Shown: positions 7,706 through 58,481, counted from the first letter of the stretch. The stretch: 64,000 bases of DNA from Minisyncoccia bacterium (GCA_049305795.1 JBAQPM010000006.1:38902-102901), one strand, 5' to 3'. Notes: a model not told the origin generated them from the letters alone. Numbers and translations: made by a program.

Positions 7706-10459
7706 ATGGAAGGACTTGAACGACCTCTTACAACTCCCGAAGAGGAGCTTGCCTATCTGCGCGCGCAGGTTGAAGCAAAAGAAAAGGAGCTTTTTGCACT
7801 TCGGGAAGTACAGCCACGCGAAGAAGTTGTTCGCGAGCGCATTGTGCATCACCGTAACATCGAAGGGGAGAAGGTCCTTGCATCCGAATACCGTCTTACC
7901 GAACCTGAGGTTCGTGTTCTCGCGCTTAACCTTGATCCGGATGATAACGACGAAACCATAGAGGAACTCCGAGGTATTTTAGAAGCGAAAGGTGTTAAGA
8001 ATGCACTTTCCGTTCTTGAGAAACTTAAAAATCCACACCTCGAAGACGACTTTCACCGCTTCCTTGTGCAATACATTGCAGGCGGCATGGAAGTTAAGGG
8101 TTGGTCGGAGAAAGAGCCAACGTGGAAAGCGCTTCACATGACGCTATATGAGGTTGCCCTTCCTGAACCGACCGGAAGTACGGGCGAAGATCGGGCAAAA
8201 ACCCTCAAAGAGCTTGTTTCTTCGATGGAACAATTTTATTCTGGCATGCTCTCGGTTAGTTCAGGGAGCGCGAGTGATGAACCCTCGTATTTTTCGATGG
8301 AACTCGCTGTTCCAGTGAACCGTCCCGAACTTCTTTTTTATGTTGCCGTGCCTAACCATAAGCGTGCCCTTTTTGAACAACAGCTTCTTGCGATATTTCC
8401 AGATGCGCATCTTGTTCCTCAGCCAAACGACTACAACGTTTTTGCAGAAGACGGTACTACGCAAGTTGCTGTTGCAACCCTTGCCACCAAAGCGGTCCTA
8501 CCGCTAAAAGATTATGCTGACTTTGATTACGACCCGCTAAACGCCTTACTAAATGCTTTCGGGAAAATTGAAGAAGCGGGTGAGGGTGCTGCACTGCAAA
8601 TCGTGATTGAGCCATCAGGAGAACGGTATATTTCGCACTATCGTAAAATCTTGCAAGCGCTGCGGCGTGGAGAAAATCAATCGAAAGCTTTTTCAACTCC
8701 GGAAGGACTCCTGGGCGAAGTCGCACGTGACTTTGGTTCAACATTGTTTGGCAAGTCACGGGATTATAAAGATGAACACGAAACCCGCACGCGCCAAACC
8801 GAAGCAAATAAGACAGATATTGAGCAAGTAGAGAAAAAGATTGCTGCACCCATTGTGCGTACCACCATCCGTCTTTTAGTTTCTTCGAGTAATCCATCTC
8901 GTGCTTCTCTCGGGCTTTCTGATCTTGAGGCTGCCTTTAATCAGTTTGGTAACACCCAGGGAAATCATTTAGTATTCGCGCATCCAACAGGGGAGCGGGC
9001 ACGTCAGGTTTTTAAAAGTTTCTCTTATCGCTTGCCTTCGCCAGACGTGCTTCCGCTTTCGCTTCGTGAACTCACCACGATGTATCATTTTCCTCCGCGG
9101 GGCATTGCATCCACGCCTCAACTCAAACAGTCCCGTTTTGCCGCAGCACCGGCACCAATGCATCTACCTAAGGCAGGACTCCAAATTGGTATAAACACCT
9201 ATCGCGGACAACAAACGGAGGTACGCATTGCGGACGAAGATCGTTTGCGACATCTGTATGTTATTGGTCAGACGGGTGCCGGAAAAACCGGACTCTTGAA
9301 GACAATGATTGCACAAGACATCGCTGAGGGACGCGGCGTTTGTTTTATTGACCCGCACGGCAACGACGTGCTTGATGTTCTTGCCATGGTTCCGCCTGAA
9401 CGTTACGAAGACGTTATTTATTTTGACCCTGCAGAAATTTCTCGGCCGTTCGGGCTTAACATGCTCGAATACGATGAAAACCGTCCCGAGCAAAAAACAT
9501 TTATCGTAAACGAGCTGTTGATGATTTTCCGTCGCTTATATGGCGATGTTCCGGAGTCCATGGGCCCAGCTTTTGAACAATATTTTAGAAACGCGACGCT
9601 TTTGGTGATGGAGTATCCTGAATCGGGTTCCACCATGCTCGATATCGCGCGCGTTCTCTCAAACGAGGAGTTTCGTCGTCTCAAATTGTCGAAAAGCAGA
9701 AATCCAATTGTGAATCAATTTTGGAATGAGATTGCCACAAAGGCGGGAGGAGATGCGGCCCTTGAAAATATCGTTCCCTATATCACCAACAAATTCGACG
9801 ATTTCACCGCAAACGATTTTATTCGTCCCATTGTTGGACAACAGCATTCTTCTTTTAATTTCCGTGAAGTCATTGATTCGAAAAAGATTCTCCTGGTGAA
9901 TCTTTCAAAGGGTCGGCTTGGTGAACGTAATGCAAACCTGCTCGGTCTTATTCTGGTCGGAAAACTTTTCATGGCCGCACTTTCGCGAGCGGATAATCCA
10001 CGCGCGGAATTTCCGCCCTTCTATTTGTATATTGATGAATTTCAGAACATCACGACTGACTCTATTCCAGGCATTCTCTCTGAAGCTCGAAAATACAAGC
10101 TGTCGCTCACCGTGGCACACCAATTTCTTGCCCAAATAGACGATAAAGTTCGCGAAGCGGTTTTTGGAAACGTGGGTTCCATGGCCGTGTTTCGTGTCGG
10201 AGAAGAAGATGCCGAATTTTTTGAGAAACAATTTGCTCCTGTCTTTTCTTCGCTCGATTTTGTGAATATTGAAAATAGAAATGCCTATGTCCGCATTCTT
10301 GCAAACGGAGTTCCGCAAAAGCCTTTCAACATCAAAACACTTGAGCTTCCCAAAGGAAATCAAAACCAAATAGATGATTTGCGTGAACTGTCATACCTCA
10401 CCTATGGTCGCGACCGTCAACAGGTAGAGGATTTCATCCGTGCGCGGTATCTGTCATAA
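7706..10459 (+). CDS. TraG/VirD4/TrwB-like coupling-type P-loop ATPase (FtsK-HerA superfamily) with a large novel N-terminal domain
   Basis: Motifs present: Walker A HLYVIGQTGAGKTGL, Walker B FYLYIDEFQN, and the TraG/VirD4 signature ARKYKLSLTVAHQFLAQI. The ~470-aa N-terminal region has no TM helix and matches no domain I recognise. Confidence 0.7.
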   Translation: MEGLERPLTTPEEELAYLRAQVEAKEKELFALREVQPREEVVRERIVHHRNIEGEKVLASEYRLTEPEVRVLALNLDPDDNDETIEELRGILEAKGVKNALSVLEKLKNPHLEDDFHRFLVQYIAGGMEVKGWSEKEPTWKALHMTLYEVALPEPTGSTGEDRAKTLKELVSSMEQFYSGMLSVSSGSASDEPSYFSMELAVPVNRPELLFYVAVPNHKRALFEQQLLAIFPDAHLVPQPNDYNVFAEDGTTQVAVATLATKAVLPLKDYADFDYDPLNALLNAFGKIEEAGEGAALQIVIEPSGERYISHYRKILQALRRGENQSKAFSTPEGLLGEVARDFGSTLFGKSRDYKDEHETRTRQTEANKTDIEQVEKKIAAPIVRTTIRLLVSSSNPSRASLGLSDLEAAFNQFGNTQGNHLVFAHPTGERARQVFKSFSYRLPSPDVLPLSLRELTTMYHFPPRGIASTPQLKQSRFAAAPAPMHLPKAGLQIGINTYRGQQTEVRIADEDRLRHLYVIGQTGAGKTGLLKTMIAQDIAEGRGVCFIDPHGNDVLDVLAMVPPERYEDVIYFDPAEISRPFGLNMLEYDENRPEQKTFIVNELLMIFRRLYGDVPESMGPAFEQYFRNATLLVMEYPESGSTMLDIARVLSNEEFRRLKLSKSRNPIVNQFWNEIATKAGGDAALENIVPYITNKFDDFTANDFIRPIVGQQHSSFNFREVIDSKKILLVNLSKGRLGERNANLLGLILVGKLFMAALSRADNPRAEFPPFYLYIDEFQNITTDSIPGILSEARKYKLSLTVAHQFLAQIDDKVREAVFGNVGSMAVFRVGEEDAEFFEKQFAPVFSSLDFVNIENRNAYVRILANGVPQKPFNIKTLELPKGNQNQIDDLRELSYLTYGRDRQQVEDFIRARYLS

Positions 10460-10482: not shown

Positions 10483-13032
10483 ATGTCTGAAATTCCTCCG
10501 CGTATAGTTCCAAATCCCGAAAATGCGCTCGATCCAGGGCGTGCTGAAGCTTTTCAAAAAAGTGCAAAGACAAAAGAAAAAATAGTCTTGGATGCTTCAC
10601 CTGTTTCATCACAAGAGAGTGGGAATACCACGAAGGAGTATAAAGAACGCTTAAGTTGGCTTGTCTCACAATTTCAAAAACCAAAATTAAAGAAAGGCAA
10701 GGAAGCTCAGAGAAATCCAGAAAAAATAAAACCTCTTTCGCCCTTCGCCGAACAAGAATTTAAAAAGGCTCTTTTATCAACAAGCAACGCATCTGAGGTA
10801 ATTTTCTCTGAGCGAAAAAATGAAAATTTCTTAACGACCAAAAAGGGTAATAGTGAACGAATACTTTCAGACACGAAAGCATTTAGAGAAGCCCTTGCGG
10901 TTGCGCGAGCGGAAGATGCTGGGATTGAAATAAAAAAAGCCCGAGAAGATATGCTTGCTGCAGAGCAAGCATATCTTGAGGAGGAAAAGAAATTCCATAA
11001 AAAACATTCCCTATTGGGACGAAAAATGGCTTCACAGCTTGGAAAAATTGATCTTCAAAAGACTGAAGCAGAATATAACGAAAAAAGTCTCGCTTTTGAA
11101 AAGGTGCTTGAGGATCGTCTTAAGAATCGTTTGGCTATAAGAGATTATTCAAAAATCTCTATGTTTGCAGAGGAGCGTGATGAGGAGGGGAATGTGCTTC
11201 GTATTGCAACTAATCCCGAAGATTTTGCGAAGAAAGTGGCAGCACGGTATCGACGTATGATGATTTCGCGGGACATCATTGATCGAGGGGCGACGCAACT
11301 TGCGGAAACGAGAGCTGCAGCACTTGATGCAAAAGGAAAAAAGACATTTGATAAGGCTCTGGGATGGGTGGCGGGACTAAACAAAGGACTCGAAGATAAA
11401 CTTGGTAAAAGGGGTGCGCGTGCAGCTCGTATACTTACGGGCGCTGCCGTAGGTGCATTTGCAGGAAGTCTTACGGGAGGAGCTGGATTCCTTTGGGGAT
11501 TTGGGACACGCACGATGCGTGCAGTACTTGGAACGTCCTTTGGGGCGGCTGCTGGATATGGCGCAGGGAAAGCGTATATGGCTACGCTAGGTAAGGGTGC
11601 CGCAGAAAAGCTTGCTGCCGCGCGCGAAACTGCTGCTACCGATGCTAAGGGAATCAAGGCAAAACGTAAGGCATACGCGAGTGGTACAGAAGAAGCTATT
11701 GCAAGAAAACGGGCACTCGTTGAGTCGCTTACGGCAGTACTTACGGGTGCCGGAGTGTCCATGGAATCTGCCCGCCTGTTTGCAGAAAACGAAATTGTTA
11801 CACAGGCTCTTTCGGATGCTTCAGACTCTGTTAATCCGGTTTCTGCTCCTGAGGCTCTCGCGTCAGTACTGCCACCAAGCCCATTGTTGGCAGTAACGAG
11901 TGTTGAGGTGCGAACCGGGGAGGGTGCCATTGGTCTTTTCAAGCATCTCCAACAACAGCTTCAAGAAACGTATGCGAGTGTTGATCGGGCAACTCTTCCA
12001 CACTCCGTGCAGCATATGCTCACGCTTTCTCCTCAAGAACTCGCTAAAGAGTATGGTTTTTACAATCCATCGGCTGCTGCGGAAAGTGCCCTCATACCAA
12101 GAGGTGCAACCCTTGGCATTGATCCAGGAGGCAGTTTGGTTTACGAGGCGCCAACAGCTCACGGTTCACATCTTATGGTTCTTGAGCAGGGAAGCACGGC
12201 TTCGGTAACTCCTTTTCATGGGACCATGCAAGATACTGATGCGTCTTCGCGGCCAACCCAAGGACCGGTAACTCATTCTGAAACACGAGCTGAAGTTGAT
12301 GCACGAGAACGTGCTGAAACAGCGAGGCTCATGACTGAACAACATCTTCGAAATGTTGAAGCACAACGTGCGTTTGACGCACAGCGCACAGCGCCTCCTG
12401 TAGTTCCAGAAACAGCTCCTGTCCCCACAGCTCCTCCTACTATTGTCCCAGAGACTACTCGTGTTTCTCCCGTGGCTCCTGTTGAAGTTACTCAAGTTCC
12501 TCGTCCAGCTGCGTCTCTCAGTGATTCGGAGAAGTTCAGAATTTTGAGTGAGTGGTCGAAGCTACATAAGGGCGAGCCGTGGCCCCCTGGTGGCCTTGAT
12601 TACGACAAGGCTGCCGCTGAGCTTGCGAATCCGGAAGTATCCAGTTCTTCCGTTGAGTCTCAACCGCTCGCATCCCTCGGACAAGTTCCCGAGACTCCAG
12701 TGATTTCACAAGAGGGAATTGTTCAAGGTATTGATGGTCTTACGGTAAATACCGGAGAAGCCCATGTGTATCAAAACACAGACGATTCTTTCGTTGTTTT
12801 TGGAGGGACTGAGGAAACACGGTCTCGTCTTACATTTGAATTCTTACAAAAAAATCCAAGAGCAACTATCTTGGTGGAAAGCTATACGACGAATGACAAA
12901 GGTCTTACCATTCCATGGAAAATGGTAAATGGAGAGCCTGTACCAGGCGAGCCGATTCGAGATACGTTTCTAGGATTTGGAGGATTTGCAAGTGAGCCTG
13001 ATCCGACTACCTTTAAAAGCAAAATATTATAA
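10483..13032 (+). CDS. large hypothetical protein with a coiled-coil N-terminus, a Gly-zipper TM segment and a Pro/Thr-rich region
   Basis: The 849-aa protein has a Lys/Glu coiled-coil region. A glycine-zipper hydrophobic segment (ILTGAAVGAFAGSLTGGAGFLWGFG) and a PVVPETAPVPTAPPTIVPETT linker are present. Confidence 0.65.
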   Translation: MSEIPPRIVPNPENALDPGRAEAFQKSAKTKEKIVLDASPVSSQESGNTTKEYKERLSWLVSQFQKPKLKKGKEAQRNPEKIKPLSPFAEQEFKKALLSTSNASEVIFSERKNENFLTTKKGNSERILSDTKAFREALAVARAEDAGIEIKKAREDMLAAEQAYLEEEKKFHKKHSLLGRKMASQLGKIDLQKTEAEYNEKSLAFEKVLEDRLKNRLAIRDYSKISMFAEERDEEGNVLRIATNPEDFAKKVAARYRRMMISRDIIDRGATQLAETRAAALDAKGKKTFDKALGWVAGLNKGLEDKLGKRGARAARILTGAAVGAFAGSLTGGAGFLWGFGTRTMRAVLGTSFGAAAGYGAGKAYMATLGKGAAEKLAAARETAATDAKGIKAKRKAYASGTEEAIARKRALVESLTAVLTGAGVSMESARLFAENEIVTQALSDASDSVNPVSAPEALASVLPPSPLLAVTSVEVRTGEGAIGLFKHLQQQLQETYASVDRATLPHSVQHMLTLSPQELAKEYGFYNPSAAAESALIPRGATLGIDPGGSLVYEAPTAHGSHLMVLEQGSTASVTPFHGTMQDTDASSRPTQGPVTHSETRAEVDARERAETARLMTEQHLRNVEAQRAFDAQRTAPPVVPETAPVPTAPPTIVPETTRVSPVAPVEVTQVPRPAASLSDSEKFRILSEWSKLHKGEPWPPGGLDYDKAAAELANPEVSSSSVESQPLASLGQVPETPVISQEGIVQGIDGLTVNTGEAHVYQNTDDSFVVFGGTEETRSRLTFEFLQKNPRATILVESYTTNDKGLTIPWKMVNGEPVPGEPIRDTFLGFGGFASEPDPTTFKSKIL

Positions 13033-27514: not shown

Positions 27515-27739
27515 TTTTGACCTCGAGTCCAACACTCTAATATTTAAATCCGTACAGGCACGGCTTCGCCTTTTGGTCACGACTCACTAAGTTCGAGGAC
27601 TCGCTAAGTGGTCTCGACCCCGACTCGACAACAGGTTTCGCGGACTCAACCTGGCTTCGCGTCTCCGTCTTTCAAATCCTGTACGGTCCTACAAAAACAA
27701 TAGTCGCCCAATGCTTTCGCATCAGGCTCCTTTGTTTTG

Positions 27740-27812
27740 TGGACCGTACAGGATTTGAACCTGCGACCCCCTCATTGCAAATGAGGTGCTCTACCAACTG
27801 AGCTAACGGCCC
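27740..27812 (-). tRNA. tRNA-Ala (anticodon TGC)
   Basis: The cloverleaf folds by hand: acceptor GGGCCGT/ACGGTCC with G3:U70, anticodon loop TTTGCAA, T-loop TTCAAAT. No CCA is encoded. Confidence 0.85.
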
Positions 27813-28791: not shown

Positions 28792-29250
28792 ATGGAAAGA
28801 AAACTTCTCACGCTCTGCATACTTCAGCACGAGGGGCGGTTCTTACTTGGAATGAAAAAGAAAGGAATGGGAACGGGGAACTGGAATGGTTTTGGGGGAA
28901 AGGTTGAAGAAGGGGAGGCTATTGAAGTTGCGGCAAAAAGGGAAATGCAAGAAGAGTCTGGAGTAATCGTTTTAGACTTAGAAGAAGTGGGCGTGCTTAT
29001 GTTTACGGCACCAACGCGGCCACCTCTTGAAATGCATATTTTCAAATCAACAAAATATACGGGGACGCCAATTGAAAGCGATGAAATGAAACCGGAATGG
29101 TTTTACAAAGACGAGTTACCTTTTGGCGGAATGTGGTCTTCCGACCTTTACTGGTGGCCGTTATTTTTGCGGGGCAAACGTTTTACTGGCGACTTTGTCT
29201 TTGATGAAAACGATAAGGTGATTTCTCACGAACTTACGGAAGTTATTTAG
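28792..29250 (+). CDS. NUDIX hydrolase (MutT-like)
   Basis: The Nudix box is GGKVEEGEAIEVAAKREMQEESGV. Confidence 0.85.
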   Translation: MERKLLTLCILQHEGRFLLGMKKKGMGTGNWNGFGGKVEEGEAIEVAAKREMQEESGVIVLDLEEVGVLMFTAPTRPPLEMHIFKSTKYTGTPIESDEMKPEWFYKDELPFGGMWSSDLYWWPLFLRGKRFTGDFVFDENDKVISHELTEVI

Positions 29251-29352: not shown

Positions 29353-29423
29353 CGGGCTGTAGTATACCGGTAGTACGCGTCCATGGGGTGGATGTAGACC
29401 GGGTTCGATTCCCGGCAGCCCGA
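29353..29423 (+). tRNA. tRNA-Pro (anticodon GGG)
   Basis: The cloverleaf folds by hand: acceptor CGGGCTG/CAGCCCG, anticodon stem CGTCC/GGATG with loop ATGGGGT, T-arm CCGGG-TTCGATT-CCCGG. Confidence 0.75.
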
Positions 29424-29436
29424 CATAAATAGTGAT

Positions 29437-42335: not shown

Positions 42336-43292
42336 ATGGAAAACACACCCGTTGCAAAAGCAGAACCGAAAGATTTTTTTCTCTGGGCCGGTGCGCTTAT
42401 AGCACTCTATGCCGCTATCACATCATTCATCACTCTCCTTTTTGAATACATAAATTATTCGTTTCCAGATTCTCTTGCCGGATGGAGCGACCCGTATAGC
42501 GGCAGCATCCGCTTTTCAATGGCAGCACTTATTGTGCTCGCGCCAACTGTGCTCATCCTCATGCGTCTCATTCGAAACAGCATCGCCGCACATCCAGAAA
42601 AGGCAACTGTGTGGGTGCGAAGGTGGGCACTCATGCTCACGCTTTTTGCCGCCGGAGCAACCATTGTTATTGATCTCATTACGCTCCTTTACACATTTCT
42701 CGGGGGAGAAATATCGACCCGATTTTCCCTTAAGGTTGCCGTCATCTTGCTTGTTGCTGTGCTCGTATTCCTTCATTTTCTTGCCGACATAAAAGGCTAT
42801 TGGATACGGGAACGAGCCAAGGCAAACCTGGTTGGAATTGCAGTGTTTGTACTCGCACTTCTTTCGGTGGTTGCTGGTTTCTTTATCGTTGGTAGTCCAA
42901 ACGATATTCGCATGGTTCGTTACGATGAACGCAAGGTTTCTGATCTTCAGGCGATTCAATGGGAGCTCGTTAATTTTTGGCAACAAAAGCAGACTCTTCC
43001 AAAAACTCTCGATGAACTAAAAGATCCACTCAGCTCGTTCATGGTCCCTATGGATATCCAGACAGACGCGCCGTATGTATATGAAGTTGTTGATGCGCGT
43101 TCGTTCAAGCTCTGCGCCACGTTCAATCGCGAAACGCAGGATACCAAAGGACGCGGCGAGTATCCGGCCTATTACGATACATCCCTTGGTTCGGGAGGTA
43201 CCTTTGAAAATTGGAAACATGGGGAAGGGGTAACGTGCTTCACGCGCACCATTGATCCGCAGCGTTATCCTCCTCTTACCAAGGGCATATAA
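42336..43292 (+). CDS. DUF5671-like membrane protein
   Basis: A 6-TM N-terminal half is followed by a soluble C-terminal domain. The architecture is common in Patescibacteria. Confidence 0.5.
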   Translation: MENTPVAKAEPKDFFLWAGALIALYAAITSFITLLFEYINYSFPDSLAGWSDPYSGSIRFSMAALIVLAPTVLILMRLIRNSIAAHPEKATVWVRRWALMLTLFAAGATIVIDLITLLYTFLGGEISTRFSLKVAVILLVAVLVFLHFLADIKGYWIRERAKANLVGIAVFVLALLSVVAGFFIVGSPNDIRMVRYDERKVSDLQAIQWELVNFWQQKQTLPKTLDELKDPLSSFMVPMDIQTDAPYVYEVVDARSFKLCATFNRETQDTKGRGEYPAYYDTSLGSGGTFENWKHGEGVTCFTRTIDPQRYPPLTKGI

Positions 43293-43305
43293 GGGGCCAG
43301 GTTCC

Positions 43306-46203
43306 ATGCGGGGATACGACCATCGGGAGATAGAAAAACGTACCCAGGAAAAATGGGCGGCTTCGGAGCTGTACGTTACCGATCTCTCAGATAAAGAAAA
43401 AGAACCGTACTATCTTTTAACGGAATTTCCGTATCCATCAGGCGACCTTCACATTGGTCACTGGTATGCCTTTGCTATACCTGATATCTTTGCACGCTAT
43501 CTGCGCATGAAAGGGAAAAATGTACTTTTCCCTGTTGGTTTTGATGCCTTCGGTCTTCCTGCTGAAAACGCTGCTTTCAAAAATGGTGCGGATCCGAAAG
43601 AGTGGACGTATGCAAACATGGACCGCATGCGCACCCAGCTTAAAAGCATGGGAACCTCTTTTGATTGGTCTAAAGAAGTTGTTACTGCAGAACCCTCTTA
43701 CTACAAATGGACCCAGTGGCTTTTTGCGAAGCTCTTTGAGCATGGTCTTGCGACGCGAAAAGAAGCTCCAGTGAAATGGTGTCCGAAAGACCAGACGGTG
43801 CTTGCAAACGAACAGGTGATTGATGGGAAGTGTGAACGTTGTGGCACTGAGGTTGAAGAAAAAAGACTTACGCAGTGGTTTATGAAAATCACCGAGTATG
43901 CTGATCGGCTGCTCTCTGATTTAGACGCACTTCCGTGGCGCGAAGACATTAAGGACGCGCAGCGTACGTGGATAGGAAAGTCCGAAGGGGCCAAAATCAA
44001 GTTTAGAGTCAAGGGTCAAGAGTTACCGGAAGCTCATGACTCGCAACTTTCAACTCATGACTTCATTGAAGTGTTTACGACGCGTCCTGAAACTATTTTT
44101 GGTGCAACTTATCTCGTAATTGCACCGGAACACCCACTCGTGGCCCAGCTTGCAGGGAGCGACTTGCCGGGAGCAGTGAAAAATGTAGAAGAGGTACAGA
44201 AATATATTGAAGCAACAAAGAAAAAGACCGAGCGTGAACGATCAGAAAATAAGGAAAAAACAGGAATCAAACTTGAAGGTATGGTTGCGATTAATCCCGC
44301 AACGAAAGAAGAAATCCCAGTGTATGTTGGAGAGTATGTACTCGGTTCATACGGCACGGGCGCTCTCATGGCCGTGCCGGCGCACGATGAGCGAGATTTC
44401 GAATTTGCAAAGAAACATACCATTCCTGTGCGTCATGTAGTTATTCCTCGATTCATTGACGAGAGAAACCCACATGTTCCGGGTAAGGAATTGGTCCCTC
44501 GAAACATCATCATTGGCATTGTGTACGATCCAAAGACGGGAAAATATTTGGGCCTCAAATGGAAGAAACAATCGTGGACGACATTTATTACAGGCGGCAT
44601 CGATGGCGATGAGGATCCCGTGGACGCGGCGCGCCGAGAGATACACGAAGAGACAGGATACAAAAATTTGAAATATATCCGCACACTTGGTGGACCGACA
44701 CAATCGGAATTTTTTGCCGCGCATAAAGACGTAAATCGCATTACCCGAGCGACAAGCATTCTTTTTGAACTTGAAGACGAAGAACGAGACGAGGTGGGGA
44801 TTGAAGAGTTAGAACAACATGAAGTTGCTTGGCTCGACGAGTCTGATGTTACACGAGAAAAAATGCAGCATGCAGAACTCGACATTATTCGATTCCGACT
44901 CTTAAACGAGGAAGCCGATTACTATACGGAACCCGGGATACTCACCGATTCAGGGATTTTTTCAGGTCGTGAAAGCGAGGAGGCAAAATGGGACATTGTC
45001 GAGGCGGTCGGTGGGGAACGCACCACGCAATACCGCATGCGAGACTGGCTTGTGTCGAGACAGCGTTACTGGGGGTGTCCTATTCCAGTTGTCTACGACC
45101 CAGAAGGCAGGGCACATTTGGTGCCTGCAGAGCATCTTCCCTGGCTTCTTCCGACGGACGTGGATTTCACGCCGACAGGAAAATCCCCACTCGCTTCTTC
45201 AAAAGAACTTCACGAGCGCGTTACGAAAATTTTTGGTGAAGGATGGACACCAGAGTATGACACACTCGATACCTTCGTAGATTCCTCCTGGTATTTCTTG
45301 CGTTATCTCGACGCGAAAGACTCGCATGATTTTTCTGATCAGGGGTTGATGAAACAGTGGCTTCCCATAAACCGCTACTCAGGTGGAAGTGAACACACCA
45401 CGATGCATCTTTTGTATGCACGCTTCTTCCACAAAGCACTGTACGATTTGGCACTTGTCCCAACTCCAGAGCCTTTCAATGAACGATTCAATCGTGGACT
45501 CATTATGGGAACTGACGGACAAAAAATGAGCAAGCGATGGGGAAATGTGGTAAATCCCGACGAAATGGTGGAGCGTTATGGCGCGGATGCGGTGCGGGTC
45601 TACCTTGCTTTCATTGGGCCTTATAACGAACCAGGCCACTACCCTTGGAATCTTGAAGGGGTTTCTTCCATGCGGAAGTTTTTGGAGCGTATTGCAGCAC
45701 TTTCTGAAAACCTTTCGGACGACAGTGCTACGGAAAATATATTACGCGCCTTTGCAAAAACCCAAACGAAGTTGGATGCGGATATCGAACGATTCAAACT
45801 CAACACTGCCGTTTCTGCGCTTATGGTGCTCGTGCGCGACCTTGAAGCTCTTTCTAATGTGCCTAAAAGCGCATGCCAAGACCTTCTTCGTTTTGTTGCT
45901 CCTTTCGCACCACATCTTGCAGAACATCTATGGGAACAGACAGGAGGAGGGGGGAGTGTCCACATGGCACCTTGGCCAACGTTTGACCCTTCACTTTTGA
46001 TTGAAGATACTGTTTCGGTGGTTGTGCAGGTAAATGGAAAACGACGTGCAAATATTTCTGTTTCTCCAGATGCTGACGAAGCAGTGGTTGTAAAAGAGGC
46101 TCGTGTGCTCCCTTCTGTGGAGACGGCACTCTCTGGAAAAGAGCCAATTCGGGTGATCTATGTGCCCGGGAAAATACTTAACCTGGTGACAAAGCAGGCT
46201 TAA
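43306..46203 (+). CDS. leuS: leucyl-tRNA synthetase carrying an inserted NUDIX hydrolase domain
   Basis: Class I motifs HIGH (HIGHWY) and KMSKR are present. The CP1 editing region runs TTRPETIFGATYLVIAPEH...GTGALMAVPAHDERDFEF. Before RMRDWLVSRQRYWG lies a ~125-aa insert (nt ~44485-44870) with a perfect Nudix box GGIDGDEDPVDAARREIHEETGY. Confidence 0.9.
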   Translation: MRGYDHREIEKRTQEKWAASELYVTDLSDKEKEPYYLLTEFPYPSGDLHIGHWYAFAIPDIFARYLRMKGKNVLFPVGFDAFGLPAENAAFKNGADPKEWTYANMDRMRTQLKSMGTSFDWSKEVVTAEPSYYKWTQWLFAKLFEHGLATRKEAPVKWCPKDQTVLANEQVIDGKCERCGTEVEEKRLTQWFMKITEYADRLLSDLDALPWREDIKDAQRTWIGKSEGAKIKFRVKGQELPEAHDSQLSTHDFIEVFTTRPETIFGATYLVIAPEHPLVAQLAGSDLPGAVKNVEEVQKYIEATKKKTERERSENKEKTGIKLEGMVAINPATKEEIPVYVGEYVLGSYGTGALMAVPAHDERDFEFAKKHTIPVRHVVIPRFIDERNPHVPGKELVPRNIIIGIVYDPKTGKYLGLKWKKQSWTTFITGGIDGDEDPVDAARREIHEETGYKNLKYIRTLGGPTQSEFFAAHKDVNRITRATSILFELEDEERDEVGIEELEQHEVAWLDESDVTREKMQHAELDIIRFRLLNEEADYYTEPGILTDSGIFSGRESEEAKWDIVEAVGGERTTQYRMRDWLVSRQRYWGCPIPVVYDPEGRAHLVPAEHLPWLLPTDVDFTPTGKSPLASSKELHERVTKIFGEGWTPEYDTLDTFVDSSWYFLRYLDAKDSHDFSDQGLMKQWLPINRYSGGSEHTTMHLLYARFFHKALYDLALVPTPEPFNERFNRGLIMGTDGQKMSKRWGNVVNPDEMVERYGADAVRVYLAFIGPYNEPGHYPWNLEGVSSMRKFLERIAALSENLSDDSATENILRAFAKTQTKLDADIERFKLNTAVSALMVLVRDLEALSNVPKSACQDLLRFVAPFAPHLAEHLWEQTGGGGSVHMAPWPTFDPSLLIEDTVSVVVQVNGKRRANISVSPDADEAVVVKEARVLPSVETALSGKEPIRVIYVPGKILNLVTKQA

Positions 46204-46299: not shown

Positions 46300-47370
46300 A
46301 TGGTAAAAAAATCCAAGACCGCCCCAAAACGAGCAACAAGCACTGCTCCGCTTTCCCTTGATACGGTTACGTCTGTAAAGCGTCTCCTTGCCGAGGTTCC
46401 TGAGCGTGCCCGCGAAGTGCTTATGTATCGTTTTGGTCTTGGAACAAGCGCCGAGCGTCAGACCCTCGAAGAGATTGGGGAACGCTGGGATATTACGCGC
46501 GAGCGCGTTCGTCAAATTGAAAGTGCTGGCCTTGAGGCAGTTCGTGGAAGTAAAACATTTCGCGAACTCGAGCCTATTTTTGAAAACCTTCGCGCGCACA
46601 TTGCAAACCTTGGAGGCATTGTTCCGGAAGATGAACTTCTTGAAAATCTTGCGAAAGATGAAAAAACCCGCAATCGGTATCGATTTCTTTTAGTTGTTGG
46701 AAGCGCTTTTTTCCGTGAACGCGAAACTGATGATTTCTATGCGCGTTGGCACGTAGATCACAAAACTGCAGAAGCAGTGCATGATGCTCTTTCTCGTCTG
46801 TACACATCACTGCCCGACAGCGACGTGCTTCCCGAAGGTGAGCTCATGGACCATTTCCTTGATGAGCTCAAAAGCGTCAACGACGCCTATAAAAATGAGG
46901 AAGTATTGAAGCGTTGGCTTTCTCTTTCAAAAACCATTGCAGCCAACCCGCTTGCCGAGTGGGGACGGGCAAGCTCTCCTACGGTTCGTACAAAAGGTGT
47001 TCGTGATTATGCGTATCTCGTTATAAAACAGCACGGCAAGCCGATGCACTTTTCTGATGTGGCAAAGACCATTAGCGGCATGTTTGCGAAAAAAGCGCAT
47101 GTTGCGACAACGCACAACGAACTCATTAAAGACTCTCGCTTTGTTTTGGTTGGTCGTGGACTCTACGCGCTTGCAGAATGGGGATATCAGCCAGGCGTTG
47201 TGCGCGACGTGATTCGTGATGTTCTTAAGAAAAAAGGTTCGCTCACCAAAGAACAGGTCATGGATGAAGTAAAAAAGGTCCGTTACGTAAAAGACAATAC
47301 TATTCTTGTAAACCTCAACGACGCACGCAACTTCAAGCGCGCAAAAGACGGTACCTACGCTGCAGTGTAA
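46300..47370 (+). CDS. sigma-70 region-4 HTH plus HARE-HTH-like domain protein
   Basis: N-terminal region 4 reads RQTLEEIGERWDITRERVRQIESAGLEAVR. The C-terminal segment KPMHFSDVAKTISGMF...DSRFVLVGRGLYALAEWGY resembles HARE-HTH. Confidence 0.55.
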   Translation: MVKKSKTAPKRATSTAPLSLDTVTSVKRLLAEVPERAREVLMYRFGLGTSAERQTLEEIGERWDITRERVRQIESAGLEAVRGSKTFRELEPIFENLRAHIANLGGIVPEDELLENLAKDEKTRNRYRFLLVVGSAFFRERETDDFYARWHVDHKTAEAVHDALSRLYTSLPDSDVLPEGELMDHFLDELKSVNDAYKNEEVLKRWLSLSKTIAANPLAEWGRASSPTVRTKGVRDYAYLVIKQHGKPMHFSDVAKTISGMFAKKAHVATTHNELIKDSRFVLVGRGLYALAEWGYQPGVVRDVIRDVLKKKGSLTKEQVMDEVKKVRYVKDNTILVNLNDARNFKRAKDGTYAAV

Positions 47371-47456: not shown

Positions 47457-48854
47457 ATGTCTTCAGGAGGTGGTCACGGGGGAGGCGGTTTGCCATTTTT
47501 GGGTTCAATTACGGGCTTCACTCACGCACTGCACGCTAAGCACGGTGTGCATTTGCCGATGTGGCCCTTTCCCACATTGTTTGTCGTTCAAAATTTTCTC
47601 TTTCTCCTCTTTGCTCCTACGCAAACATTTCAAAATTACGAATTTCTCCTTTTTCTTTCTCCCCTATGGCTCCCGATCCTGCTTATCCGTTTTATGTGGG
47701 AGAGGCGGAAGGACGTAATGCAATATGCCTATAGTTTTTCTCAAGACAAGGTGCTTCTTGAAATCCGTATTCCACGGGAAGTACGCAAAACACCTCTTGC
47801 CATGCAGTCCTTTTTCACAAGCATACATTTGAGCCCCGGCGAAGGTACCTGGTACAAAAAACATATTCTGGGCCGCACCCGCCCCACGTGGTCTTTTGAA
47901 TTGGTTTCAATTGAAGGACAAGTGCATTTTTGCGTGTGGACTCGCGAATCTTTTCGTCGAGCTATAGAAACCTATTTGTATGCTGAATATCCGGGCATAG
48001 AGGTTATTGAAGTACCTGATTTTTTACGGACCTTTGAATTCGATCAGCACGAAAAACATCGCGCCTGGTCGTGTGAATATGCCCTTAATCAACCCGACCC
48101 GGTTCCTATTAAATCATTTGTTGATTTTGGTATTGATAAACCAGGGCTTAAACCTGAGGAGGTTGCTGACCCGTTGTCCCACGTTATTGAATTTCTCGGC
48201 TCTCTTGGTAAGGGTGAGCGTGCGTGGATTCAAATCATTCTTCAAACTCACAAAGGAGGAAAATATAACCGCAAAAATGCAAAAGGAGGGGTATATACCT
48301 GGAAGGATGAAGCAGACGAGATGATTAAAGAAATAAAAGACTCCACGGTTTCTGAAACCCAGTATGTCGACGCTGTCACGGGGAAGCTTGTAAAAAGCAA
48401 AGGATTTCCAAACCCAACCAAAGGCCAGGTTGAATATATGGGTGAAATCGGACGAAATGCGTATATGCCAGGTTTTGATGTCGGTATCCGCTCGCTCTAT
48501 ATTGCAGAGAAAGATCGGTATTTCGGAACTATCGGCGCGCATCTTTCACAAATATTCAGAGTTTTTGCGGGAAGCAATGTGCTTGGACCGCATCCATCGG
48601 TAGGTTCTGAAAAATTTAGCGAGTTCCCCTGGGAGGATCCAAGTGGTCATCACTACCAACACGAAATGCAAAAGATGTTTGATTTTGCAAAGCGTCGCGT
48701 TTATTTCCACTACCCATATAAGGGTCCAAACATGGTCATGAGCACAGAATCGCTCGCAACTCTCTACCACATACCTTCTTCGACAACCACGACGCCGGGT
48801 CTTCCACGCATCCAATCAACAACATCAGAAGCTCCACCTAACCTACCGATATGA
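47457..48854 (+). CDS. hypothetical membrane-associated protein (465 aa)
   Basis: A Gly-rich N-terminus and two hydrophobic segments are followed by a large soluble domain. No family is recognised. Confidence 0.5.
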   Translation: MSSGGGHGGGGLPFLGSITGFTHALHAKHGVHLPMWPFPTLFVVQNFLFLLFAPTQTFQNYEFLLFLSPLWLPILLIRFMWERRKDVMQYAYSFSQDKVLLEIRIPREVRKTPLAMQSFFTSIHLSPGEGTWYKKHILGRTRPTWSFELVSIEGQVHFCVWTRESFRRAIETYLYAEYPGIEVIEVPDFLRTFEFDQHEKHRAWSCEYALNQPDPVPIKSFVDFGIDKPGLKPEEVADPLSHVIEFLGSLGKGERAWIQIILQTHKGGKYNRKNAKGGVYTWKDEADEMIKEIKDSTVSETQYVDAVTGKLVKSKGFPNPTKGQVEYMGEIGRNAYMPGFDVGIRSLYIAEKDRYFGTIGAHLSQIFRVFAGSNVLGPHPSVGSEKFSEFPWEDPSGHHYQHEMQKMFDFAKRRVYFHYPYKGPNMVMSTESLATLYHIPSSTTTTPGLPRIQSTTSEAPPNLPI

Positions 48855-56558: not shown

Positions 56559-58481
56559 ATGACGGTAAACGAGGTACGCAGCCGCTATCTGGCCTTTTTT
56601 GAAAAACGGGAACACGCCATTATCCCCTCGGCTCCCATCGTTCCTGAAAACGACCCTACAACGCTTTTTACCTCAAGCGGCATGCAGCCCTTGGTGCCGT
56701 ATCTTCTGGGTGCACCACATCCCAAGGGAACCCGTCTGGCGGACTCACAAATTTCATTTCGAGCGGGGGATATTGAAGAAGTGGGAGATAATCGGCACAC
56801 TACTTTTTTTGAAATGCTCGGTAACTGGTCGCTTGGAGATTACTTCAAGAAAGAACAGCTTCCATGGATTTTTGAATTCCTCACCAGCAAAGAAGAAGGT
56901 CTTGGTTTTGATCCTGTAAAACTCTATGTAACCGTTTTTGATGGAGACGTTGAGGCAGGTATGGATCTTGATACCGAGGCAGTCGAAATATGGAAAGAAC
57001 TTTTTGCACAAAAAGGAATGGACGCTGCGCTAGTGCGCATTGGTACCGAAGAAGAGGGATATGAAAAGGGAATGCAGGGAGGACGCATCTTTTCCTACGG
57101 TTCAAAGAAAAACTGGTGGAGTCGTGCGGGTGTTCCCAAAAACATGCCACCCGGCGAGCCAGGAGGTCCCGACTCTGAAATTTTTTATGATTTTGAAACA
57201 CCCCATGACCTGAAATGGGGCAAGGAATGCCACGTGAACTGCGACTGCGGACGTTTTGTTGAGATTTCTAACTCAGTGTTCATGCAGTTCGTGAAAAACG
57301 CAGACGGTTCCTTCAGCGAGCTTCCAAATAAAAACGTGGATTTTGGAGGTGGGCTTGAGCGACTCGCCGCAGCAACTCTTGACAGTTCAGATGTTTTTAC
57401 CATCGATGTGTTTGCTGCACCGAGAGTAATTCTTGAAACTCGTTCTGGAAAAACATATGGAGAGAATGAACAAATAACACGTTCGTTTCGTATCATTCTT
57501 GACCACATCCGGGCGGCCACCTTTATGCTGGCTTCTGGTATTCGGCCGCAAAACAGTGAGCAGGGGTACGTGCTTCGTCGCCTTGTTCGTCGCGCCATAC
57601 GCGAAGCAGATCGTCTTGCTATTACAGATGCCATTCTTCCAGAAATTGCAGCGGCGTATGGGGAATCGTATGCCGGTGCCTATCCTTTTATACGAGAATC
57701 AGCAGAAAATATCCGCACCGAACTTTCCCAAGAAGAAGAGCGTTTTCGAAAAACCCTCACCCAAGGACTTCGTGAGTTTGAAAAATTTGCTGCTACCAAC
57801 GAAATTTCAGCAGATGCGGCGTTCACTCTTTTCACTACCTACGGCTTTCCTATTGAAATGACCGAAGAATTAGCAAAAGAACGTAACATTTCGATAGATC
57901 AAGCTTCTGTTGAAACTCGCCTGAAAGAACACCAAGCACAGTCACGTGCCGGAGCGGAACAAAAGTTTACCGGCGGCCTTGCCGACCACGCAGAACAGAC
58001 GGTCCGTTATCATACGGCTCATCATATTCTTCTCAAGGCATTGCAAATGGTATTGGGTCCTGAAGTGCACCAGCGGGGAAGTAACATCACGAGCGAGCGT
58101 TTGCGTATTGATTTTTCTTACGGACAGAAAATGACACCGGAACAAATTGCTGCAGTGGAAAAAATAGTAAATGAGAAAATCATTGAAGAGCTTCCCGTGT
58201 CTCGCACAGTTATGCCAAAAGAAGAAGCGGAGAAGTTTGGCGCGGAGCACGAATTTGGGGTGAAATACCCCGACATGGTTTCGGTATATTCCGTTGGTCC
58301 AAAAAATGCCACTCCCGAAAATCCAAATATAGACCAGGCTTTTTCAATCGAATTTTGTGGCGGCCCGCATGTTTCTAACACGCGCGAACTTGGCGAGGGA
58401 GGAAAGAAATTCAAGATTCTAAAAGAAGAAGCTTCCTCTGCCGGGGTGCGTCGTATCAAAGCAGTCTTGGTAGTTTCTTAA
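56559..58481 (+). CDS. alaS: alanyl-tRNA synthetase, short form lacking the C-Ala domain
   Basis: It has the AlaRS catalytic N-terminus and an editing domain with HTAHH and CGGPH. The protein ends at 640 aa. Confidence 0.9.
   Translation: MTVNEVRSRYLAFFEKREHAIIPSAPIVPENDPTTLFTSSGMQPLVPYLLGAPHPKGTRLADSQISFRAGDIEEVGDNRHTTFFEMLGNWSLGDYFKKEQLPWIFEFLTSKEEGLGFDPVKLYVTVFDGDVEAGMDLDTEAVEIWKELFAQKGMDAALVRIGTEEEGYEKGMQGGRIFSYGSKKNWWSRAGVPKNMPPGEPGGPDSEIFYDFETPHDLKWGKECHVNCDCGRFVEISNSVFMQFVKNADGSFSELPNKNVDFGGGLERLAAATLDSSDVFTIDVFAAPRVILETRSGKTYGENEQITRSFRIILDHIRAATFMLASGIRPQNSEQGYVLRRLVRRAIREADRLAITDAILPEIAAAYGESYAGAYPFIRESAENIRTELSQEEERFRKTLTQGLREFEKFAATNEISADAAFTLFTTYGFPIEMTEELAKERNISIDQASVETRLKEHQAQSRAGAEQKFTGGLADHAEQTVRYHTAHHILLKALQMVLGPEVHQRGSNITSERLRIDFSYGQKMTPEQIAAVEKIVNEKIIEELPVSRTVMPKEEAEKFGAEHEFGVKYPDMVSVYSVGPKNATPENPNIDQAFSIEFCGGPHVSNTRELGEGGKKFKILKEEASSAGVRRIKAVLVVS

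Follow-up and report, generated by a model that had tools for sequence, protein, structure and literature searches.

Aminoacyl-tRNA synthetases (aaRSs) belong to the most thoroughly studied enzymes, and extra domains on them are known mainly as terminal appendages of the eukaryotic enzymes, where they have signalling roles. The appended GST, WHEP and EMAPII domains are of this kind, and in the case of LysRS the lysyl-AMP that it makes is hydrolysed in trans, by Hint. NCBIfam also holds a model, NF040702, for an 'isoleucine--tRNA ligase, N-acetyltransferase domain-containing', which is a synthetase with an extra enzyme and differs from the present case in both the synthetase and the domain. Here we describe a stretch of 64,000 nucleotides from a Minisyncoccia bacterium (GCA_049305795.1, JBAQPM010000006.1:38902-102901; the whole stretch is called the window below) in which leuS, the gene for leucyl-tRNA synthetase (LeuRS), encodes a Nudix hydrolase domain within the editing domain of the synthetase. 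In contrast to the terminal additions of the eukaryotic aaRSs, the Nudix domain is a nested insertion. The class Minisyncoccia belongs to the phylum Minisyncoccota, which, according to PMC12281837, corresponds to the Candidate Phyla Radiation (CPR), or Patescibacteria.

A survey of domain insertions (Protein Sci 2026, PMC13114784) reports aaRSs as frequent hosts and the LeuRS editing domain family PF13603 as a classic inserted module, which it classifies as 'insertion-exclusive', having counted zero events with it as the host. In the window LeuRS, PF13603 is the host of a Nudix domain, and this nested insertion contradicts the zero-host conclusion of that survey. The preliminary description of this locus, made from the window alone, knew of no precedent for a Nudix domain fused in cis to a synthetase, and we likewise found no description of a LeuRS-Nudix or other aaRS-Nudix fusion in the literature searched. 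The fusion is not unique to this contig, however, as hundreds of database LeuRS have the same architecture and have for years been annotated merely as leuS or class I tRNA ligase. The parts are known ones; in the literature searched, the nested architecture is undescribed, as is the family-wide pattern in which small clean-up enzymes are embedded in CPR LeuRS. The case is of general interest as a predicted pyrophosphatase, with catalytic residues that appear intact, is nested in a bacterial LeuRS editing domain, is conserved across a large uncultivated radiation and seems to have been reinvented at several positions.

A Nudix domain nested in the LeuRS editing domain

The leuS open reading frame (ORF) occupies 43252..46203 (+) as one uninterrupted frame with zero internal stops. 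Its mechanical start is a TTG at 43252, and the likely start is the ATG at 43306, which gives a protein of 965 amino acids. The protein is 100% identical to P0010, a protein from a metagenome-assembled genome (MAG) that is listed at NCBI as 'class I tRNA ligase family protein [Minisyncoccia bacterium]'. It scores 879.1 bits with the TIGR00396 leuS_bact equivalog model (cut-off 548.4), Pfam matches its catalytic, editing (PF13603) and anticodon-binding domains, and it aligns with the Thermus thermophilus enzyme (1h3n) at an E value of 8e-195. The predicted model of the protein has a pLDDT (predicted local distance difference test) of 82.9 and is matched by Foldseek to 4aq7 with an E value of 2e-68 and a TM score (TMt) of 0.78. 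Domain order and motifs are the same as in the bacterial LeuRS of T. thermophilus (1H3N/2BYT) and Escherichia coli (4AQ7), at 34-36% identity and TMt 0.75-0.78, and the HIGH, KMSKR, TTRPET and AHDERD motifs are all invariant in an alignment of the fusion LeuRS with 49 relatives. Every defining feature that can be checked in a sequence or a model is present, and the gene is thus predicted to encode a complete bacterial-type LeuRS. It is unlike 1H3N in two respects: residues 380-538, the Nudix domain, stand in place of a 13-residue loop of connective polypeptide 1 (CP1), and the leucine-specific domain (T. thermophilus residues ~581-637) is missing.

The preliminary description claimed a genuine, self-contained Nudix fold inside LeuRS with a perfect Nudix box, and this claim is borne out. 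The Pfam model PF00293 matches residues 420-524 of the whole protein with 46.3 bits and the span 44485-44870 (residues 394-521) alone with 49.0 bits (E 7.9e-13), against a gathering cut-off of 21.1, and the box GGIDGDEDPVDAARREIHEETGY is an exact fit to GX5EX7REUXEEXGU. In the predicted model of the window LeuRS, the segment forms the alpha/beta/alpha sandwich of the Nudix fold, with the box on a loop-helix-loop. The architecture is nested twice over: a complete Nudix domain sits in the C-terminal part of the CP1 editing domain, and CP1 is itself inserted in the Rossmann fold. The insertion point lies about 16-20 residues past the AHDxRD editing motif, in a surface loop of CP1.

As to its extent, the span 44485-44870 translates as first described, but the original estimate of about 125 extra residues was too low. 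Compared with T. thermophilus LeuRS, 13 residues (363-375) are replaced by residues 380-538 of the window protein, and compared with a hidden Markov model (HMM) of minimal, insert-free CPR LeuRS, 149 residues (386-534) are inserted. Insert-free close relatives have an empty site, with a loop of 3-20 residues between '...V(I/V)xP' and 'YTGxGxLxNS'. The excess is therefore about 146-149 residues, and the domain takes in an N-terminal strand (PRFID) and C-terminal helices. The features of the gene are as follows.

43306..46203 (+): leuS, bacterial-type leucyl-tRNA synthetase, 965 amino acids plus stop; matches to TIGR00396, 1h3n, 4aq7 and P0010
43450..43461 (+): HIGH signature of the class I catalytic site, residues 49-52; invariant in 49 fusion LeuRS
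43963..44442 (+): CP1 editing domain before the insert, residues 220-379; PF13603 with 184 bits, residues 220-382 matching profile positions 1-143 of 185
44077-44094 (+): T-rich TTRPET motif, residues 258-263; T258, T259, R260 and T263 invariant
44380-44397 (+): AHDERD with the editing Asp, residues 359-364; D361 and D364 invariant
44443..44919 (+): inserted Nudix hydrolase domain, residues 380-538; the HMM-defined insert, residues 386-534, is at 44461-44907
44593..44661 (+): Nudix box GGIDGDEDPVDAARREIHEETGY, residues 430-452; E445, E448 and E449 are the catalytic or metal-binding residues
44722..44739 (+): HKDVNR, a subfamily-specific motif, residues 473-478; K474, N477 and R478 are kept in free-standing homologues
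44920..45030 (+): remainder of CP1 after the insert, residues 539-575, beginning YYTEPGILTDSGIFSG and leading to the YRMRDW linker; residues 539-736 align with T. thermophilus 376-580
45031..45705 (+): second half of the catalytic domain, residues 576-800, without the leucine-specific domain
45040-45075 (+): RDWLVSRQRYWG, in the second catalytic half
45523-45537 (+): KMSKR, residues 740-744
45706..46200 (+): anticodon-binding and C-terminal tRNA-binding domains, residues 801-965; PF08264 with 70 bits at residues 811-928; aligns with T. thermophilus 638-877

In the alignment with T. thermophilus, the leucine-specific domain is seen as a gap, in which residues 581-637 have no counterpart and the window protein jumps from residue 736 to 741. 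The region of lowest confidence in the model is also near KMSKR, with pLDDT below 50 at residues 730-748 (window 45500-45550).

The preserved Nudix box points to an enzyme. Among 49 fusion LeuRS, G430, G431, E445, E448, E449 and G451 are invariant and E436 and R444 are present in at least 90%, and the strict box is found in 168 of 174 fusion LeuRS, with the E..EE core still present in the exceptions. Taken as a whole, the insert evolves faster than the catalytic core (mean frequency of the major residue 0.57, compared with 0.75-0.77), so the constancy of the box residues argues for purifying selection on catalysis. The insert is accordingly a candidate for an active Mg2+-dependent pyrophosphohydrolase. 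At +17 from the box there is an invariant Phe, followed by F, Y or H at +18, and the domain is acidic, with a net charge of -12 and an isoelectric point of 4.9 for the window copy and family medians of -8 and -10.

That the fusion is an assembly chimera, or an artefact of gene calling that joined a Nudix gene to leuS, is so improbable that it can be neglected. The gene is a single frame without stops, its composition is uniform (GC content at third codon positions 0.44 for the insert, 0.445 for the remainder of the gene), the flanks of the insert on either side are LeuRS sequence, the NCBI protein is identical, and the same architecture recurs in hundreds of independent assemblies, by which this reading was already refuted. 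An intein or other self-excising element was considered and rejected. Inteins have a C, S or T nucleophile at the N-terminal junction and His-Asn followed by C, S or T at the C-terminal junction; the junctions here, VVIP|RFIDE and NEEADYY|TEPGI, lack these motifs, and no Pfam intein or Hint match was found.

Distribution, free-standing homologues and insertion sites

Conservation of the insert across the CPR, which the preliminary description had put forward as a check alongside the PF00293 match and the predicted fold, both of which came out positive, was found at three levels. In the whole-protein search, PF00293 was present in 120/120 of the closest LeuRS relatives (61-68% identity, from Parcubacteria/Paceibacteria MAGs), so that all 120 relatives at at least 61% identity retain the insert. 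A scan of GTDB species genomes, in which detection relied on a few exact peptide patterns, gave 68 loci, made up of 55 LeuRS ORFs with the insert and 13 short free-standing genes, and the identity of the insert among the 55 LeuRS ranged from 61% down to ~35%. An independent metagenome scan with the subfamily profile gave 76 ORFs, 56 of them LeuRS and 20 short and free-standing, and none of the 76 was a host protein other than LeuRS. Over three samples, LeuRS is the sole fusion partner seen for this Nudix subfamily. Fused and free forms occurred together in 0 of 68 GTDB genomes, a weak result given the few exact peptide patterns used for detection.

A search with the insert only returned one LeuRS fragment and eight free Nudix proteins of ~160 amino acids at ~50% identity, and the insert belongs to a Patescibacteria-specific Nudix subfamily that also exists in this free form. 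The free Patescibacteria proteins (~155-190 amino acids; P0003, P0006, P0007 and P0153) are 35-52% identical to the insert from end to end and share with it the motifs EETGYKN, F(F/Y)..K..NR, E and W, as well as the N-terminal strand and the C-terminal helix. In most of them, unlike in the window insert, the box is a variant in which position 7 is Q and the Arg is displaced or missing. The free proteins lack an RNA-binding extension. No leuS was found within ~5 kb of the free Nudix gene at any of 16 stand-alone loci, and no Nudix gene lay beside insert-free leuS at the loci examined. In metagenome loci L119 and L127, a short ORF (214 and 182 amino acids, respectively) lies within ~4.5 kb of a LeuRS-Nudix fusion and scores a weak 32-35 bits on the HMM of the insert subfamily; these ORFs may be a second, more distant Nudix beside leuS.

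The free forms also bear on annotation. Two free Nudix proteins of 157 amino acids, P0146 and P0148 (locus L071, 8001-8474, not adjoining leuS), are named 'leuS' in NCBI, a label that was probably transferred from LeuRS-Nudix fusions. The present comparison corrects this naming, along with that of the fusions labelled merely as tRNA ligases. Another free homologue, P0003, lies in a ~10-kb run of small genes on the same strand (L069, 545-10375) with four Nudix genes, Ham1, a PF06821 Ser_hydrolase, HAD_2, His_Phos_1 and, further, 2',5'-RNA-ligase-like, aminoglycoside-phosphotransferase-like, aldo-keto reductase, LDcluster4 and flavin reductase genes, which together look like a 'house-cleaning island'.

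The window itself holds a separate Nudix gene at 28792-29250 (+), which the preliminary description did not regard as an obvious source of the insert. We agree: its product is 19% identical to the insert and scores 21.6 bits on the HMM of the insert subfamily. It is MTH1-like and was rejected as the donor as being unrelated. Residues 3-151 align with residues 7-156 of vertebrate MTH1/NUDT1 (5otn) at an E value of 5e-47, compared with ~1e-7 for bacterial MutT structures.

The insertion site of the window LeuRS is one of several. For the mapping of sites, the 150 nearest LeuRS representatives (P0243-P0392; 50% identity clusters; 619-1344 amino acids) were aligned to the HMM of minimal CPR LeuRS, which was based on an insert-free set of 22 representatives of 780-840 amino acids. 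Insertions of at least 50 residues cluster at hotspots near window residues 201, 239, 286, 385, 601, 668 and 803 and at the C-terminus. The Nudix subfamily of the insert is present in 70/150 representatives and absent from 80/150, and its segments are found most often at the site of the window, 385 (61), followed by 239 (6), 201 (5), 601 (3), the C-terminus (2) and 286 (1). Relative to CP1, Nudix domains thus stand ahead of it, at two points within it, behind it in the catalytic body and at the C-terminus. The Pfam matches illustrate this, with the Nudix domain of P0349 (residues 245-357) ahead of an unbroken PF13603 (394-584), that of P0388 (531-655) behind an unbroken PF13603 (219-408) and that of P0360 splitting PF13603 early. 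Two or three copies are present in 10/70 Nudix-bearing representatives, and three in a 1399-amino-acid metagenome LeuRS; LeuRS with 2-4 copies include P0254, P0283, P0305 and P0291 as well as those of L074 (the 1399-amino-acid ORF) and L097. Tandem pairs at site 201 consist of one copy with a canonical box and one with the variant box typical of the free proteins, in which position 7 is Q and position 15 is not Arg, and such a pair may be a built-in pseudo-dimer.

Other enzymes occupy the same hotspots, with up to three different cassettes in one LeuRS, which takes the length up to 1344 amino acids:

Ham1/ITPase: P0252, P0303, P0366 and P0296 (197 bits)
HAD_2: P0248, P0250 and P0045
Ser_hydrolase/alpha-beta hydrolase: P0253, P0278, P0298, P0303, P0311 and P0366
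GNAT: P0311 and P0392
Nucleotidyltransferase (NTP_transf_5 or aminoglycoside-NTase-like): P0286 and P0310

Further CPR LeuRS with other inserted enzymes are encoded at loci L008, L010, L013, L030, L046 and L050. In the window, no cassette inserts were found in the other large proteins (UvrA, UvrB, AlaRS, ATP synthase alpha and M13 peptidase). A separate observation concerns P0358, a LeuRS of 1271 amino acids with an N-terminal extension of 462 residues that contains an NB-ARC/STAND NTPase, which is either a real fusion or a read-through in gene calling.

The empty state of the site is represented by P0246, an insert-free LeuRS with 57% identity whose gene is syntenic with that of the window (leuS, Sigma70_r4/HARE-HTH, DUF8128). 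In the window, leuS is followed at 46300-47370 (+) by the gene for a Sigma70_r4 and HARE-HTH protein and then at 47457-48854 (+) by that for a protein of ~465 amino acids corresponding to DUF8128, which had zero matches in the Pfam copy used. The same pair adjoins an insert-free leuS in L072 and is present in L071 too.

The history of the insertions was approached in two ways. Divergence of the insert correlated with that of the LeuRS core with a Pearson r of only 0.36, a value that we regard as uninformative because the alignment is distorted by other insertions and insert identity saturates at ~0.45-0.5. Fitch parsimony on a neighbour-joining tree of 138 representatives (50% identity clusters) gave 38 changes for 'Nudix at site 385', compared with 43 (minimum 36) in shuffled data, on a tree that is essentially unresolved at such depth.

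Possible roles of the inserted domain

The comparison with characterized Nudix enzymes assigns the insert to no one substrate class. The best structural match to the insert is 2azw, a free-standing MutT/Nudix protein of Enterococcus faecalis from structural genomics, at 16% identity, and since it has no assigned substrate it does not help with the function of the insert. It is followed by Ap6A/Ap4A hydrolases, DIPP, RppH, NudI and ADP-sugar hydrolases, and the hydrolases of diadenosine polyphosphates (ApnA) are not set apart from the other classes. The flax rust Nudix effectors AvrM14-A/B (8DP8/8DP9), Dcp2 and the ApnA/polyphosphate hydrolases Ndx1, 3I7U and DIPP are ~20% identical to the insert and come from eukaryotic or unrelated contexts, and none of them is embedded in another enzyme. 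AvrM14 is the best solved sequence relative (full-length, E 6e-9) and has been described as an mRNA-decapping Nudix (10.1101/2023.11.14.566975). The insert scores below every cut-off of the NCBIfam Nudix equivalogs. It is not a member of RppH (NF001934-NF001938; 19-28 bits against cut-offs of 116-259) or of NudB, the dihydroneopterin triphosphate diphosphatase (NF006961; 31 bits against 103), and no match to MutT models was found at E<=0.01, so it is not a member of MutT/MTH1. A Tyr 16-18 residues downstream of the box reportedly marks Ap4A/ApnA hydrolases, according to Dunn et al. in 1999.

Our preferred account, which we hold tentatively and with somewhat less than even confidence, is that the insert is an autonomous house-cleaning pyrophosphatase, tethered to and co-expressed with LeuRS, which would serve as a privileged carrier. 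The domain would fold independently within the CP1 loop and act as a Mg2+-dependent pyrophosphohydrolase, with the metal bound by E445, E448 and E449 of the Nudix helix. Its substrate would probably be a diffusible small molecule of nucleotide type, in the class of nucleoside diphosphate-X (NDP-X) or dinucleoside/polyphosphate compounds, and not 8-oxo-dGTP. The acidic character of the domain family favours a small molecule over RNA, and the presence of a separate MTH1-like gene in the genome makes it unlikely that the insert is a sanitizer of oxidized purines. The module would merely be tethered, with no direct coupling to editing, and aminoacylation and post-transfer editing by CP1 would proceed as in an ordinary LeuRS. 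More generally, the LeuRS of these reduced-genome bacteria would carry Nudix, Ham1/ITPase, HAD, alpha/beta-hydrolase, GNAT and nucleotidyltransferase enzymes at a few permissive hotspots. The variable sites and the unrelated clean-up enzymes at the same hotspots favour such an autonomous module, and we also counted in favour of a carrier that the neighbours of the free homologue P0003 in its ~10-kb run are of the same families as the LeuRS cassettes. If this account is correct, it shows how ultra-small genomes package housekeeping functions, and it marks surface sites of LeuRS that tolerate insertions of 150-350 residues and would be useful for protein engineering.

Some of the observations weigh against a mere carrier. 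In three samples LeuRS is the only partner, and the pairing either originated or was shuffled at several sites. Were the module a pure hitch-hiker, other large essential proteins should serve as hosts as well, and a benefit specific to LeuRS is therefore likely. The nearest solved relatives include ApnA and RNA-cap enzymes, which fit a coupling to the synthetase or to RNA equally well.

The preliminary description had suggested that the domain could provide a new route for pre-transfer editing or adenylate hydrolysis. We consider this unlikely, because an aminoacyl-AMP is an acyl-phosphate and not a nucleoside diphosphate-X, and because variable sites disfavour a role in editing that depends on geometry; the suggestion is hard to reconcile with at least five insertion sites, multiple copies, a free form, insert-free syntenic relatives and unrelated enzymes at the same hotspots. 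The main rival to our account is a looser coupling, which restricts the ApnA clearance or signalling of the preliminary description to what Nudix chemistry allows. A coupling of this kind, in which the tethered Nudix hydrolyses the Ap4A, Ap3A and ApnN that are made when ATP or other nucleotides attack Leu-AMP, and so keeps an alarmone or RNA-cap precursor low or reports on LeuRS activity, is possible, though on the whole rather unlikely. The exclusive and recurrent partnership with LeuRS and the ApnA hydrolases among the structural neighbours are consistent with it, but tethering gains little for a product that is released and diffusible, sister lineages have the free enzyme without linkage to leuS, and the Ham1, HAD, esterase, GNAT and NTase inserts at the same sites are left unexplained. 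The structural matches do not discriminate either, as enzymes acting on ADP-ribose, NTPs and RNA score alike and the best match, 2azw, has no assigned function. The exclusive and recurrent use of LeuRS as host also keeps alive a broader and more doubtful idea, that the Parcubacteria-type LeuRS is a modular platform whose interchangeable cassettes, at hotspots mostly on the mobile CP1, would act on species bound or made by LeuRS, such as ApnA, damaged ATP analogues, mis-acylated or modified tRNA ends or adenylate-mimic inhibitors. Translation quality control, or defence, would then have a hitherto unrecognized layer that is part of a synthetase itself.

An action on RNA, with the Nudix on CP1 removing a pyrophosphate-linked group such as a 5' triphosphate, an NAD or Np4N cap or a 3'-pyrophosphate left by toxin action, would make the domain a tRNA repair or decapping module, and we regard it as improbable. 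It is the reading to which AvrM14 as the best full-length solved relative, the matches to Dcp2, NudC and RppH, and the location of most insertion sites in or beside CP1, which receives the tRNA 3' end, would point. A strongly acidic domain family is nevertheless unfavourable for binding an RNA backbone, the RppH scores are far under their cut-offs, Nudix domains also occur after CP1 and at the C-terminus, and the free homologues are without an RNA-binding extension. If the Nudix does act on synthetase by-products or on tRNA, it would be a new kind of translation quality control. It is very improbable that the embedded enzymes detoxify in situ by destroying or modifying adenylate-mimic antibiotics or other LeuRS inhibitors. 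The GNAT, aminoglycoside-NTase-like and serine hydrolase inserts do resemble resistance or immunity families, and the NCBIfam 'exception' models list the GNAT-domain IleRS next to mupirocin-resistant IleRS, yet this is purely circumstantial; the known adenylate-mimic inhibitors of LeuRS offer a Nudix no pyrophosphate bond to cleave, Ham1/ITPase is out of place in such a role, and no toxin or antibiotic genes were seen near leuS in the neighbourhoods inspected. We give equally little weight to a non-catalytic role, in which the Nudix fold would sense a ligand or act as a structural spacer and so modulate the movement of CP1 or the stability of LeuRS. Nudix-fold regulators exist, with NrtR and AraR among the structural matches, and a minority of copies have the variant box, but the window copy and 168/174 fusions keep all catalytic residues of the box and even the variant copies keep the E..EE core.

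Other genes in the window

The MTH1-like gene at 28792-29250 lies between tRNA-Ala(tgc) (27739-27812) and tRNA-Pro(ggg) (29353-29424). One would not expect such a gene in a CPR bacterium; it may have come by horizontal transfer, or it may belong to a bacterial MTH1 family that has been under-appreciated. A second synthetase in the window, the AlaRS at 56559-58481 (+), is short (640 amino acids), with a class II catalytic domain and tRNA_SAD, and no C-terminal C-Ala domain was detected in it. Two adjacent large ORFs at 7706-10459 and 10483-13032 (+), of 917 and 849 amino acids, are nearly free of Pfam matches; the first has a weak match to TraG-D_C (24.7 bits), and the two may be a conjugation or type IV coupling-protein-like pair.

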